NCBI RefSeq assembly: GCF_003019035.1
Contig: NZ_CP027448.1
DNA: 64,000 nucleotides
Origin: Escherichia coli
GTDB taxonomy: Bacteria; Pseudomonadota; Gammaproteobacteria; Enterobacterales; Enterobacteriaceae
Strand: one strand, 5' to 3'
Position 1 is the stretch's first letter. The number at the start of each line of letters is the position of its first letter. Below are positions 15,462-24,707 of this stretch, piece by piece. Both the position numbers and the translations under genes were made by a program. Under the pieces are notes generated by a model. It searched no databases. It had not been told where the DNA came from and saw only the letters and a program-made list of their open reading frames with translations.

Positions 15462-16600
15462 TGAGATGGTCTTCCCCCTCCTTCACGGCAGCCTTCAATT
15501 GCGCCATGAAGGATAAACTTTAACCACAAAAATAAGAGGGATACCATGTCTGAACAGAAAATCACCGGCATCGAGCTGGCTAAAACGAACTTTTATCTTT
15601 TCAGTATCAATGCTCATGGCAACCCCGCAGGAAAGGCCAAACTTTCTCGCAATCAACTGCTTAACTGGCTGGTGCAACAGCCTAAAATGACTGTTGCTAT
15701 GGAGGCTTGCGGGGCATCCCATTACTGGGTCCGGGAAATCAGGAAACTCGACCATGACGTAATATTGCTTCCGGCACAACATGTTAAAGCTTATCAGCGG
15801 CGTCAGAAAAATGATTATAACGACGCACAGGCAATAGCTGAGGCCTGCCAACATGGAACTATACGACCCGTACCAATAAAAAATCTGGAGCAACAGGACG
15901 TCCAGACTTTTTTGAAAATGCGCCGGTTGGTTTCGATGGAAAGGACACAACTGATAAATCACGTTCGTGGACTTCTTGCTGAATACGGCATTGTGTTCAG
16001 TAAAGGTGCAACAGAACTACGCCAAAAATTACCGGCACTACTTGAGGATGCGGAAAACGAACTCACTGATACCATGAGGACGTTATTGCATCGGCAGTAT
16101 ATACGGCTGATTACACTGGATAATGAATTGGAGTGGTATGATTCTGAACAGAAAAAATGTCCGGCAGGATCCTGTGTGCAAACGGTTGTTAGCTATTCCA
16201 GGATTCGGCCCCCTGGTTAGTCAGGCAATAAAAAGCTGGATGGGGGATGGAAAACAGTTTAGACGAGGAAGGGATGCATCTGCAGCTCTGGGGCTGGTTC
16301 CCCGACAGTTCAGCACGGGGGAAAGCAGGTTCTTCTGGGCATAACAAAATGTGGAGATCAATATATCAGATCTATGCTGATACACGGTGCCAGAGCGGTA
16401 TTGTTCAGAGCCTCAGAGAAAACTGATTCACTTAGTATGTGGGTTAATCGTATTCGGGAAAAGCGTGGCTTCAACCGGGCAGTTGTTGCTCTTGCAAATA
16501 AACTCCTTCGGATCGCCTGGATAATTATCGCCCGCAATGAGATGTATTTGCCTGCAATTTAAGCCAGATGTAATCTGACAGATACCTGTATAAATAACCG
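15462..16600 (+). mobile_element. IS110-family element with decayed transposase (boundaries approximate)
   Basis: DEDD-type IS110 transposase reading frame; left boundary inferred from where homology to the inverted partial copy at 27925-28300 stops. Confidence 0.6.
15546..16562 (+). pseudogene. IS110-family transposase, two frameshifts
   Basis: Three consecutive ORF pieces (15546-16220, 16123-16344, 16374-16562) carry the N-terminal catalytic region and the C-terminal IS110 signatures (...LLAIPGFGPLVSQAI..., ...LGLVPRQFSTGES..., ...ALANKLLRIAWIIIARNE...). Confidence 0.75.
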
Positions 16601-17566
16601 GTAACTGTCAGATCAGGTCTGAGCTAATACAGGTATGGCAGAACGTGACGTATTTGTACGGTGAATCCGGGGACATTTTGTGGAAGGTTTCCCGGAAATA
16701 GACCATGCAGGAGGAATGACCGGCGATAAAGTCTGCAAATACGGACTGATAAGGGTGATTATTGGCTCTGGCGACGGCTTTTAGAACTTCTTTCACCATT
16801 CTGGTGTGGACTTTCTGGTGCTCCAGGTTGTGTGACATGGGAACTCATTCTGGATGGTTACTCTGAAAGCTCATATTCTGCTACACCCCGATTTGCATCT
16901 GCCAAACTGTCGTGGTTTTGACGAGCCGCTTACGTAAATAATTGCTGTTAACAAACAGATTTAATGTTTCATCATTTTTATTATGTCGCCACTCTGTCCG
17001 CTCTGATACCCCTACTCACTATCATTGCTGGTGAGTCTTGGACTAACTCAAATAACTATTACGGGATATGGGGAGTGACAGCAAATGCTGTATTTTCTCT
17101 TGGTTCCTCACTTTATATTAAGTTTGTCAGCAATTTTCGCTCTTCATAAAAACGTACTGTCTGGTATTGGATGAATGTGAAGCATACCAGAGAGGAACTA
17201 TAAAAATATACATCAGTCATTCCATCCTGTTCTGTCTGTAAAGTCCTAATTATTTCTGAACTGTACTGGTGATAAAGCTTGGTGTTTGTTGTTTTTATAA
17301 CTAATTGAAATTACTTGGATAATGTTAAATAATCTTAAATAATTTTTCATCTGACTCTTTGTGCTTTAGGTTGGTTTTATCCAACGTCTTGGGTGTGCGA
17401 TATGCCGACATGTTATGTATTGCGATCTCCCTTTAATATTTATTGGATAGATGTTTATTGTGTCTTTGCATTATTGCCTGTGCATGTACAGGCAATGGCC
17501 GCGGTTGCAGATGAATTTCATGTGTTATTTTAGTTTGTCGCGTCGCACAAAGAGGGGTGGGGTGAA

Positions 17567-18109
17567 ATGCGTCTTGGAATAATAATGCAGCTGTTGATTG
17601 TGCTCTTTTTTATGCGGGATGGATGGGGGGCGGAGCGAATAATATTTTCTGTAGATGTTGTGTCTTCAGCTTGTCATGTGGTGGTGGATGCGGACAGCAC
17701 CGGCAACAGTGGCCGGCTGACATTCGGGACTTACCGCAAGTCCACGGGGGCGTCTGTGCCTCCGCGTGACTTCACTGTGCGTCTGTATGAGTCCGGTGCC
17801 ACGGTTCAGGGCTGCTCAGCCTTTAAGGTCGGGCAGGTCGCCACTCTGGATTTTGGCAATCCGGGACAGCTGGACGCAGGGGGCGTGGTCACCCGCGGTG
17901 CCGGTGATGGTATTCGCGTGGATGTGCGCGCGGTGGATGCGCAGGCAGATTATCGCGGACGTCTGACTCAGGACAGTCATTCGGTGAATTACCCGGTGGA
18001 GTTTGCTGCTAAGGGACAGTTCCGTTTTCGTGCGCAGCCGGTGTTTCCGGCAAACGTGAAGGCGGGAGAATACACGGGTGCACTGACCTTTGTGGTCACG
18101 TATCAGTAA
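17567..18109 (+). CDS. Fimbrial minor subunit (FaeC-like) of a K88/F4-like chaperone-usher operon
   Basis: 180-aa secreted protein ending ...TFVVTYQ (pilin C-terminal strand); first gene of the operon, as faeC in K88. Confidence 0.7.
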
Positions 18110-18123
18110 CGGAGAAAAGGATT

Positions 18124-22887: not shown

Positions 22888-23114
22888 TTCAGCAGAATCT
22901 GGCAGTAAACCCTCCCCCGTTTACTGCTGACTAAAAATTCAGGTCACTGTTTCCGGTGACCTGAATATACGGAACCGGGATGTCGGAGCAGGTGTTTTTT
23001 TCTGTCGGAATGCGTTGTGACGTATGTCGGTTCTGTATTGTTTTCAGTGGGAACACGTTTGAATGAACTGGTTTTTATTTTTATGTACTCCGGAACAGAG
23101 CAGAGTAAATAACA

Positions 23115-23912
23115 ATGAAAATAGCGCATCATTATAAATCCCTTCTTTCAGCCATTATTTCGGTGGCCCTGTTTTATTCGGCAGCGCCACATGCAAATAT
23201 TCTTGATGGTGGCGAAATTCAGTTTAATGGTTTTGTCACTGACGAAGCCCCCAAATGGACCTGGCAGATAAGCTCGCCGGACCAGACCTGGGCAGTGGAT
23301 ACTGCAGATGCGCGTACAGAGAACGGACAACTGGTTTTTAATTTGCGTGATAAAGGGGCTCTGCCGTTTCTGGAGGGACATCTGCATGAAGTGGCTGAGC
23401 GAGGTGGTCCCGGATTCACCCCCTTTATTACCTTCAGCAGTAATGGACAGCCTTTTACTGTGACGGAAGGAAATGGTACCTCAGCACAGCATTTCCGCGC
23501 CTCTGTCCCGGTGCGTGACCCGGAAACGGGAAATGTGTCGGGGCAGCTTTCTTTCACCTTGAATCAGGGGATGGCAGTCAGTGCCGGCAGACAGGAAGAC
23601 GGGGCATCCGTACCGGTCGGGATGTCGCTGGTCAGTGGGCAGAGCGTGACGGATGTACAGTCAGGAACGCTGCCACAGGGGCTGAAAGCCCGACTCTCTT
23701 CTCTGTTACTGATGAATCAGAATTTTGGCAATGGCATGAATGCGGTGGATAACGGACAGGTTATAAGTCAGGGGGTACTGGCTGACGGTCGGGTGATGAA
23801 TCTGGCTGCGGCCTATGCTTCAGCGGTATCGGATTTTGAACTGCGGTTGCCAGCAGAGGGTACACCTGCAGTATGGCAGGCGGGGCTGAATGTGACGGTT
23901 ACGGTACAGTGA
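23115..23912 (+). CDS. Fimbrial minor subunit (FaeH-like)
   Basis: 265-aa secreted protein ending ...LNVTVTVQ; position matches faeH. Confidence 0.7.
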
Positions 23913-23942
23913 TGGTTGCAGGGATATAAGGAGAGAAGAGAA

Positions 23943-24707
23943 ATGAAAAAGGTGACGTTGTTTCTGTTTGCTGCCAGCCTCCTGCCTTCCTGTGTACTGG
24001 CCTGGAACACGCCGGGAGAAGATTTCAGCGGAGAGCTTAATCTGGAAGGGGCAGTGACCAGCACCCATAATCCGTGGGTGTGGAAAGTCGGACAGGGAAA
24101 TGAAGGCCTGGAGGTTAAACAGAGCCGCGGTGTTCGTGACGGTGAGCAGGCAATTCCGGTCGCACTGCCGGCGATGACCGTTTTACTGGGAAAAACCACC
24201 CTGACCACACCGGCAGGACGTGAGGGGCTTTCTCCCCGTGTCAGTTACGGAAAGGGTACTGAGGGATTTTCGCTTGAATGGACAGCACCAGGCGTGGCGG
24301 AGGTGACGCTGCCTGTCACCGGAGATAATAATGCCCGGGCAGGAAAATTTGTTTTCAGAATGCAGGTAACGGGAGGGTTGCGCTATGTGCAGAACGGACA
24401 GCCCATATATGCCGGCGTATATGACGACCTGAATGCGAATGGTCTGCCAGGTGAAAGTACGATGATGAAGACTTCTGAGACTCCGGGTGTTCTGCAGAAT
24501 ATGTTCAGTGATGAGGGACCGTCATGGCTACACACAATGACAGTGACAACTTCCGTAGGAGTGAGTCACTTCAGCGATGCTTCTTTGCGTCAGGTTGAAG
24601 GTGTATATGGCGCACAGACAGTAGCAGGTAGTGGAGAATTATGCCTGAATGGGACACCGCCTGTGCACTGGCGAGTGTCATTGCCTGTGAGTATTGAGTA
24701 TCAGTGA
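23943..24707 (+). CDS. Fimbrial minor subunit (FaeI-like)
   Basis: 254-aa secreted protein (MKKVTLFLFAASLLPSCVLA...) ending ...LPVSIEYQ; ATG at 23943 with AAGGAG RBS. Confidence 0.7.
   Translation: MKKVTLFLFAASLLPSCVLAWNTPGEDFSGELNLEGAVTSTHNPWVWKVGQGNEGLEVKQSRGVRDGEQAIPVALPAMTVLLGKTTLTTPAGREGLSPRVSYGKGTEGFSLEWTAPGVAEVTLPVTGDNNARAGKFVFRMQVTGGLRYVQNGQPIYAGVYDDLNANGLPGESTMMKTSETPGVLQNMFSDEGPSWLHTMTVTTSVGVSHFSDASLRQVEGVYGAQTVAGSGELCLNGTPPVHWRVSLPVSIEYQ

Follow-up and report, generated by a model that had tools for sequence, protein, structure and literature searches.

A K88/F4-family fimbrial operon of Escherichia coli in a sub-group linked to PsaE/PsaF-type regulators

Introduction

K88/F4-like fimbriae are major colonization factors of enterotoxigenic Escherichia coli (ETEC) and are widespread on Escherichia and Salmonella plasmids. 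The textbook account of how they are regulated is phase variation by PapI/PapB, Lrp and Dam. Here we analyzed a K88/F4-family operon at positions 17567-24707 of a 64,000-nucleotide stretch of E. coli contig NZ_CP027448.1 (assembly GCF_003019035.1; this whole stretch is hereafter the window). No FaeA/FaeB-type regulator genes precede it, and a pair of genes homologous to psaE and psaF of Yersinia lies beyond its 3' end. The anatomy of the operon and of its locus is well supported. As a whole, the locus is probably best explained as an intact K88-family operon of a psaEF-linked, non-FaeA/FaeB sub-group that PsaE/PsaF would activate.

The F4 (K88) fae operon of pUMNK88_K88 (faeA-faeB-faeC-D-E-F-G-H-I-J) has the same gene order from faeC to faeI. 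Its C, D, E, F, H and I products are 83-96% identical in amino acid (aa) sequence to those of the window, and at the DNA level the two operons are homologous from within faeC up to the stop codon of faeI. The window operon differs in having neither faeA/faeB upstream nor faeJ, in its FaeC signal peptide, and in a major subunit that is only 31% identical. The F4 upstream region is also unrelated, with a cluster of three GATC sites that the window does not have. Klf of Salmonella Infantis pESI and the related klf clusters likewise combine conserved K88-type machinery with a hypervariable G subunit and a FaeA-like gene on the 3' side, and across the Salmonella K88-like clusters the machinery is kept while the G subunit varies and the 5' regulators are swapped (PMC5560535). 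Klf, however, is controlled by KlfB (PapB/AfaA-like), KlfL and Lrp, with no PsaEF described for it (PMC5560535), and its FaeF is ~68% identical to that of the window. With the Pap-type switch (PapI/PapB, Lrp and two GATC sites; pap, daa, sfa, fae, clp) the window operon has in common only the type of the downstream chaperone-usher machinery: no PapB/PapI genes adjoin its faeC, and the single GATC of its leader is not conserved.

The regulator pair resembles that of Yersinia psaEFABC and myfEFABC (pH 6 antigen and Myf), where homologous proteins of the same topology are encoded by adjacent psaE and psaF genes (PMC8407435, PMC6657601). Control by PsaE/PsaF is known only for psa and myf, and has been called unusual among fimbriae (PMC9820224, PMC6657601). 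The Yersinia loci belong to another chaperone-usher clade and make a single-subunit PsaA fibre, in contrast to the seven-gene K88-type operon. Their regulator pair lies immediately 5' of psaA, whereas the Escherichia pair is kilobases away and usually 3' of the operon, and their psaF-psaA spacer has no full copy of the promoter box described below. We found no paper linking PsaE/PsaF to K88-like operons, nor any such paper by way of ToxR-like regulators of chaperone-usher fimbriae or of pEntYN10.

Results

An intact operon of the K88/F4 family

The initial annotation, made from the sequence alone, had matched the order and sizes of the genes to faeC-D-E-F-G-H-I. The open reading frame (ORF) map, a Pfam scan and alignment to the F4 proteins bore this out: the seven genes of 17567-24707, which all run in the same direction (plus strand), make up an intact chaperone-usher operon of the K88/F4 (kappa) family. 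The domains typical of the kappa family are all present, namely an Usher, a PapD-like chaperone, DUF5462 and several Fimbrial_K88 (PF02432) domains, and all Pfam matches exceed their cutoffs. The operon begins with a faeC-like minor (tip) subunit gene (17567-18109, 180 aa), whose product is 85% identical to F4 FaeC from residue 9 onwards. There follow genes for a faeD-like outer-membrane usher (18124-20568, 814 aa; Pfam Usher E 8.7e-95, PapC_N and PapC_C; 94% aa identity to F4 FaeD), a faeE-like periplasmic chaperone (20561-21352, 263 aa, the longest ORF beginning at 20477; PapD_N E 9e-31; 96% to F4 FaeE over 237 aligned aa) and a faeF-like minor subunit (21387-21878, 163 aa; DUF5462 E 4e-66; 88% to F4 FaeF). 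The hypervariable major subunit/adhesin is encoded at the faeG position (22117-22887, 256 aa, or from 22093, 264 aa; Fimbrial_K88 E 8.5e-60). Two further minor subunits complete the operon, one faeH-like (23115-23912, 265 aa; Fimbrial_K88 E 2e-77; 89% to F4 FaeH) and one faeI-like (23943-24707, 254 aa; Fimbrial_K88; 83% to F4 FaeI). The same 8.1 kb is found in the E. coli plasmids p3RM8082 (99.7% identity; locus L001 in our set) and p35A2a (99.2%; L003). The NCBI annotation of the 99.7%-identical plasmid uses the names faeD/E/F/H/I, and NCBIfam gave no specific names for the subunits or regulators.

Judged by these identities, the assembly machinery appears to be nearly that of F4 and the major subunit/adhesin a very divergent allele. 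Because the latter is 31% identical to FaeG of pUMNK88 (phmmer against PDB FaeG, E 6e-6), it is not the F4 antigen or adhesin. Its homologues, in more than 1,000 clusters of uncharacterized 'F4 family fimbrial subunit' proteins, form a continuum from 98% down to 56% identity. The DNA homology of the major-subunit gene is lost over 22365-22780 relative to clusters that are otherwise 90-95% identical, and two related plasmids (L005 and L008) carry two or three tandem paralogues of it.

The absence of faeA/faeB-type regulators upstream and of faeJ, also claimed in the initial annotation, was confirmed. When PapB, PapI and FaeJ of a related cluster were used as tblastn queries, nothing in the window matched at E<=1, and none of the upstream ORFs has a Pfam PapB or FaeA domain.

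A PsaE/PsaF pair beside the operon

Regulator genes do lie just outside the operon, a situation that the initial annotation had named as grounds for refuting its reading: psaE and psaF, plus a truncated FaeA-like remnant at 25061-25222. The psaE-like gene (29180-29836, minus strand; Pfam Trans_reg_C E 3.8e-13) encodes an OmpR-type winged helix at the N-terminus, a transmembrane (TM) segment at residues 147-165 and a periplasmic tail with two cysteines. Two nucleotides past its stop codon is the ATG of the psaF-like gene (28696-29178, minus strand; Pfam PsaF (PF17550) E 3.2e-17, above cutoff; TM residues 4-22), which encodes a ToxS/TcpH-type membrane partner and candidate pH sensor. The ToxR-like regulator noted earlier at 29180-29836 is thus real and is the best candidate for control of the operon. 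The earlier proposal that it may have taken control over implies a secondary event; its linkage to the operon instead appears to be the native state of the sub-group.

Both proteins resemble their Yersinia counterparts at residues that matter. PsaE is 56% identical to Y. pseudotuberculosis PsaE in the DNA-binding domain and 39% overall, with tblastn matching the genuine psaEFABC locus, and the PsaF proteins of the window and of Yersinia can be aligned over their full length (29% identity). In Y. pestis, residues C206 and C211 of PsaE and H54, H87 and H155 of PsaF are needed for PsaE/PsaF stability and for psaA expression (PMC8407435). The two cysteines align with Cys210 and Cys215 of the window's PsaE, which are invariant in 8 sequences, and the histidines align with His56, His90 and His153 of its PsaF. 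The equivalents of Yersinia H141 and H153 are not conserved, leaving three of the five essential histidines. The pair is intact in the window, and comparison with L019, a more distant locus described below, gave dN/dS values of 0.15 for psaE and 0.11 for psaF, which argues that both genes are maintained by selection.

Linkage of psaEF to K88-like operons

To place the pair in a wider context, we used a collection of 72,556 plasmids, in which a PsaE-like gene occurs in only 18 Escherichia plasmids and a FaeF homologue in 312 plasmids, 155 of them from Escherichia or Shigella. Ten Escherichia plasmids with a PsaE-like gene were inspected together with five L019-type contigs (L019-L023), which makes 15 loci. 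A K88-like operon is present in all ten plasmids, and its C, D, E, F, H and I products are ~66-100% identical to those of the window. The psaE/psaF genes lie 0.1-3 kb from the operon in the ten plasmids, and ~0.1-6 kb from it across all 15 loci. Their placement differs among lineages: in the window the pair is on the opposite strand, 4 kb 3' of faeI; the sibling plasmids have it 2.5-3 kb 5' of the operon, and the other lineages 0.1-3 kb 3' of faeI/faeJ. The PsaE proteins form four lineages, mutually 37-59% identical, that co-vary with the class of leader and of FaeC signal peptide. In L007, an E. albertii plasmid, the psaE copy is degraded by stop codons.

No psaEF was found within the ~4-6 kb flanks of five PapB-type loci (Ecol_244, A2, pCUVET18-1475.2, MMC-J-0078 and true F4). 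Conversely, neither a PapB nor a FaeA domain is encoded by the upstream ORFs of the other psaEF-linked loci. We regard the linkage between psaEF and K88-like operons, as seen in these gene neighborhoods, as strong evidence that the two are functionally coupled. A profile search of genome contigs with the PsaE alignment returned only the Yersinia psa loci and three weak Bacillota matches, and so offered no independent test of the linkage outside Escherichia.

An inversion and the remnants of class-5 operons

Relative to its flanks, a 12.9-kb segment of the window (15454-28320) that includes the fimbrial operon, a virK fragment and ibrAB is inverted when compared with p35A2a and p3RM8082. At its left end are the first 397 bp of an IS110 element (15454-15850, plus strand), which are 99.2% identical to the reverse complement of an IS110 5' fragment at its right end (27924-28320, minus strand). 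The inversion thus appears to have arisen by recombination between two inverted IS110 5' segments. The order in the siblings is psaE, psaF, IS110, IS91 end, usher remnant and fae-like operon; it matches the L019 layout and is therefore taken to be ancestral. After the inversion, psaEF lie 4 kb downstream on the opposite strand, and a CfaE fragment and a second psaF remnant now lie upstream. The inversion would not have to alter control by PsaE, which would act in trans.

The DNA upstream of the operon could be assigned almost to the promoter. An IS110-family element with a frameshifted transposase extends from 15454 to ~16629 (plus strand; NCBIfam transpos_IS110, E 8.5e-48; the right end is approximate). 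It is followed by an IS91-family terminal fragment (16630-16923, minus strand) that recurs in ~1,500 E. coli genomes; in a chromosomal copy of this repeat, the small ORF and the terminus lie beside an IS91-family transposase. The minus strand at 16935-17247 then carries residues ~36-144 of a class-5 (TcfC/CooC-type) fimbrial usher, in a frameshifted gene remnant that matches the intact L019 usher gene at 74.5% by blastn and at 42-47% aa identity by tblastn (E 1.6e-10). Two small ORFs that had been called unassignable can now be placed: 16608-16838 (minus strand) is an accessory ORF of the IS91-family fragment, and 16964-17149 is antisense to the usher pseudogene fragment, within which it appears to be noise. 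As these alignments suggest, 16935-17247 would be the leftover of an operon once divergent from the fae-like operon, and the native promoter and leader of the latter would comprise only ~17250-17566.

Further class-5 remnants lie to the left of the IS110 element. A C-terminal remnant of a class-5 (CfaE/CblD-type) tip adhesin gene (14743-15279, plus strand; Pfam CblD E 2.5e-19) matches the L019 tip adhesin at 77% aa identity by tblastn, and its DNA is 96% identical to the psaF-cfaE junction of L019. Next to it, the 3' remnant of a second psaF-like gene (15321-15479, minus strand) is cut by the left end of IS110; it is 83.6% identical in DNA sequence to 28666-28801 and matches residues 123-160 of L019 PsaF by tblastn. 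The remnants at 14743-15479 and at 16935-17247 come from two different class-5 (CS1/Tcf-like) modules (96% versus 74.5% identity to L019), which suggests that the ancestral plasmid carried two psaEF/class-5 modules.

The layout is uninterrupted in L019-L023, contigs whose PsaE homologue is 79% identical to that of the window. There, psaE-psaF are followed by a convergent class-5 operon (tip adhesin, usher, major subunit, chaperone) and then by a divergent K88-like operon, whose faeC has the same MRLG-type signal peptide and a leader that is collinear with the window's and of equal length. No PapB/PapI gene lies between the class-5 and K88-like operons of these contigs. The initial annotation had suggested that control was displaced by IS110/IS66 insertions, which does not fit this comparison: because L019-L023 share both the leader and the FaeC signal peptide of the window, with no PapB/PapI between the operons, a FaeA/FaeB pair was apparently not displaced, and the IS91 and IS110 events would have destroyed the neighboring class-5 operon, not a regulator pair.

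These observations bear on the most serious alternative to control by PsaE/PsaF, namely that psaEF belongs to the decayed class-5 (CS1/Tcf-like) operon and that the K88-like operon has no dedicated regulator, being silent or run by H-NS, Lrp or CRP from an AT-rich promoter. Proximity is what recommends it. In L019-L023 the psaF stop codon is 62 bp from the convergent class-5 tip-adhesin gene, in the sibling plasmids class-5 remnants are found between psaEF and the fae-like operon, and in the window the second psaF remnant sits beside the CfaE fragment. In the stretches examined, however, L001 and L003-L011 have no intact class-5 operon, and L004-L011, where psaEF are 0.1-3 kb from faeI/faeJ, have no class-5 genes at all. 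The K88-like operon is the sole partner common to 15 of 15 loci, the class of its leader co-varies with the PsaE lineage, and in the window psaEF remain intact under purifying selection although the class-5 operon has been destroyed. We therefore consider an exclusive role of psaEF in the class-5 operon rather unlikely.

The promoter and leader of the operon

The best sigma-70 match in the upstream region (10/12, 17305-17333) has the -35 hexamer TTGAAA at 17305-17310, a 17-bp spacer and the -10 hexamer AATAAT at 17328-17333. It forms part of a conserved core-promoter element (17300-17345, plus strand), in which tandem boxes TTAAATAAT-c-TTAAATAAT occupy 17325-17343. When otherwise unrelated upstream regions were compared by blastn, a single island of 27-29 bp (17319-17350 in the window) was found, which the window shares with six others, and this island is also the best-conserved block relative to the L019-type leaders (AACTAATTGAAATTA..TAAT.TT.AATAAT..TAAATAATTT). 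From it we defined a 21-nt promoter box with the consensus TT(A/G)AATAAT-NN-T(A/T)(A/T/C)ATAATTT, at 17325-17345 in the window. Except in L009, the box occurs exactly once, upstream of faeC and on the faeC strand, in the window and the 14 other psaEF-linked loci whose upstream DNA was examined. One locus was cut upstream of faeC. The rest of the 601 kb has no further copy, and the PapB-type and Yersinia loci have none at all. As the motif was drawn from the sequences in which it was counted, only its absence elsewhere is informative. The Yersinia psaF-psaA spacer contains a single exact TTAAATAAT, which has an estimated chance of ~0.1 in such AT-rich DNA and was not used as evidence. The box also fits TNAAA-N5-TNAAA, which we take to be the direct repeat of ToxR-like regulators; we did not rely on this fit, as the box overlaps -10-like hexamers in AT-rich DNA.

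The promoter is also where the sibling plasmids differ. All of the ~13 upstream differences between the window and p35A2a fall within ~170 bp around the promoter (17276-17440), and the 436 bp further upstream are 100% identical. One of them, a 12-bp insertion in p35A2a, adds a third TTAAATAAT box to the two of the window.

Transcription is predicted to start near 17340-17351, which would give a leader of ~220 nt. In its 5' part, CTCTTTGTGC (17356-17365) is perfectly complementary to GCACAAAGAG (17546-17555), directly 5' of the Shine-Dalgarno sequence, and the two are paired in the predicted fold. Among the three siblings, substitutions and indels are concentrated at both sites; they include an AAAG repeat that varies in length and three different bases at 17560.

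The leader also includes a perfect 9-bp inverted repeat with a 6-nt loop, ATTGCCTGT-gcatgt-ACAGGCAAT (plus strand), 70 bp before the ATG. The initial annotation had reported this palindrome at 17471-17494 as a candidate regulatory site. It is real, although 2 bp away (17473-17496), and it lies at ~+125 to +155 of the predicted leader, inside DNA predicted to be transcribed and not at the promoter. One may ask whether it is the key control element, independent of PsaEF, either as the operator of a dimeric repressor or as an attenuator or mRNA-processing hairpin. An inverted repeat of this quality arises in 2.3% of shuffled 1-kb regions, and ~10 distinct ones are present in the 64-kb window. The palindrome forms an 11-bp stem in both the minimum-free-energy and the centroid fold, in a leader whose fold has a z score of -2.3. 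It is invariant in the three near-identical sibling plasmids despite the variable leader nearby, but this conservation is uninformative, because the 85 bp around it are invariant as well. At the equivalent place the L019-type leaders have a different inverted repeat, TTATCCATCC-N15-GGATGGATAA, which hints at a structural rather than a sequence-specific role. No U-tract follows the palindrome, so it is not a canonical terminator, and an Rfam search of the leader matched no family. The left arm is similar to signal-peptide codons in other faeC genes, with a 13-nt exact match to L007, which could be chance or the scar of an evolutionary event. If the palindrome acts at all, it most likely does so as an RNA hairpin; that it governs the operon independently of PsaE/PsaF seems improbable.

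A GATC site near 17424 (17424-17427) had likewise been proposed as regulatory. The site is present, but p35A2a has GCTC at this place, which argues against Dam/Lrp control, and the GATC sites of true fae are in a different upstream region. The only other GATC of the upstream region is at 16611. The leader GATC is probably incidental.

The boundaries of homology at the two ends of the operon

Homology between the window and PapB-type relatives (Ecol_244, ~93% identity, and true F4) begins only inside faeC, just past the signal peptide. The boundary lies at ~17654-17690 for the other clusters, and homology to true fae starts at 17672. The FaeC signal peptides fall into at least three classes in the family, while mature FaeC is ~90% conserved. 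That of the window is lineage-specific, of the class common to L019-L023. At the other end, none of the other clusters remains homologous past the faeI stop codon (last position 24705).

This pattern counts against the idea that a FaeA/FaeB (PapI/PapB)-type module once preceded faeC and was lost to IS110, IS91 or IS66 insertions. Such a loss might be expected from the IS fragments directly upstream, from the many close relatives (~93% DNA identity) and true F4 that have PapB, with or without PapI, immediately upstream, and from the truncated FaeA-like remnant at 25061-25222. However, the PapB-type clusters are homologous only from a point inside faeC beyond the signal peptide, and L019-L023, whose leader aligns collinearly with 17250-17566, have no PapB/PapI between the class-5 operon and faeC. 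The upstream ORFs of the other psaEF-linked loci likewise have no PapB/FaeA domain, and the FaeA-like remnant is part of a faeA-shf-capU-virK-type block, not of the 5' end of an operon. The loss of such a module is thus very improbable.

Two other origins of the 5' region were considered and dismissed. A blastn search (distant mode) of all complete E. coli genomes and all plasmids with 16924-17660 matched the two sibling plasmids only, which suggested a foreign origin; the contigs with PsaE homologues showed that this DNA combines the native leader with what is left of a diverged class-5 usher gene. A recent origin of the FaeC N-terminus by a ~135-nt insertion was dismissed because L019-L023 share its signal-peptide class at ~60% identity.

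Other features in and around the operon

The faeG-faeH spacer has two stem-loops formed by perfect inverted repeats (22902-22927 and 22938-22965, within 22901-22965, plus strand). No U-tract follows them on the plus strand of the spacer, and they may stabilize the mRNA or attenuate transcription, and so set the ratio of major to minor subunits.

The FaeA/PapI-like remnant (25061-25222, plus strand), 350 bp 3' of faeI, is fused to a VirK/DUF535 fragment, which is split over two ORFs within 25061-25901. It has a Pfam FaeA match above the curated cutoff (E 1.1e-5), is 33% identical to the L019 FaeA-like protein by tblastn, and is incomplete according to the NCBI annotation of a sibling plasmid. 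Related plasmids have an intact block of faeA-like, polysaccharide deacetylase, glycosyltransferase (capU-like) and virK genes, of which the window looks like an internal deletion.

At 26017-27884, overlapping PAPS-reductase-like and ParB-N/IbrB-like genes form an ibrAB-like pair, which also adjoins the K88-like operon of E. albertii in L007. IbrAB activates the Eib surface proteins in E. coli ECOR-9. That this pair regulates the fimbrial operon is hardly credible: it is 1.3 kb downstream on the same strand and also adjoins the K88-like operon in the siblings and E. albertii, but only 4 of 15 psaEF-linked loci carry it, the PapB-type loci inspected all lack it, and we found no known fimbrial link.

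In clusters that carry faeJ (L002, L005, L008 and L024-L026), a conserved gene of ~190 aa without a Pfam domain comes after faeJ. In PapB-type loci the next gene after it encodes an EAL domain. These genes may represent one more module, accessory or regulatory, of K88-like operons.

Discussion

The missing regulators of the window operon are explained by a PsaEF-linked variant of the K88-family operons, which has not been described before. In this sub-group, PsaE/PsaF (ToxR/ToxS-like) would take the place of the FaeA/FaeB (PapI/PapB)-Lrp-Dam module. The promoter would be AT-rich with the conserved 21-nt box, followed in the lineage of the window by the ~220-nt leader. By analogy to Yersinia psaEFABC, PsaF would stabilize PsaE at acidic pH and 37 C, and PsaE would then act in trans on the faeC promoter and switch on transcription of the operon. 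That PsaE binds at or near this promoter, and the signals to which it responds, are inferences. The psaEF genes would originally have been upstream, with the divergent class-5 operon in between; IS91 and IS110 insertions and deletions would then have reduced the class-5 operon to fragments, and IS110 recombination would have flipped 15454-28320 and left psaEF downstream.

Several observations weigh against this proposal. PsaE has never been shown to bind DNA, even in Yersinia (PMC6657601). All loci are on mosaic IncF plasmids, so that some of the linkage may be hitch-hiking, and they are not phylogenetically independent but represent ~4-6 lineages. In L019-L023, psaEF abut the 3' end of the class-5 operon and could serve that operon. 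The pair is also not kept intact everywhere: in p3RM8082 (L001, 7299-8300) the psaE and psaF reading frames have evidently become joined, being annotated as a single ORF of 333 aa, unlike in the window and p35A2a. As for the promoter box, it is missing from the psaEF-linked locus L009, the sequences that defined the motif were also those used to count it, and the box overlaps the -10 hexamer and spacer of the predicted promoter, so that it may be merely the core promoter and not an activator site.

Taking both sides together, we lean toward a regulatory link from psaEF to the operon, for which comparative genomics makes a somewhat better case than against it. A broader version of the proposal is tentative, and we would put it a little below even: that a PsaEF sensor controls the Escherichia sub-group at large, that regulatory modules are swapped as cassettes, with junctions between the signal peptide and mature part of FaeC on the 5' side and at the faeI/faeJ end on the 3' side, and that PsaE recognizes the TT(A/G)AATAAT-NN-T..ATAATTT box.

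If true, control by PsaE/PsaF would provide a second, genetically tractable target promoter of the poorly understood PsaE family, in E. coli, and, with the conserved box as candidate binding site, the first candidate DNA target for any protein of that family. If about one-tenth of the Escherichia plasmid clusters use PsaE/PsaF, their adhesins would be induced by acidic pH and host temperature and not by stochastic phase variation. This would change the conditions under which these fimbriae should be induced for detection, serology and vaccine work.

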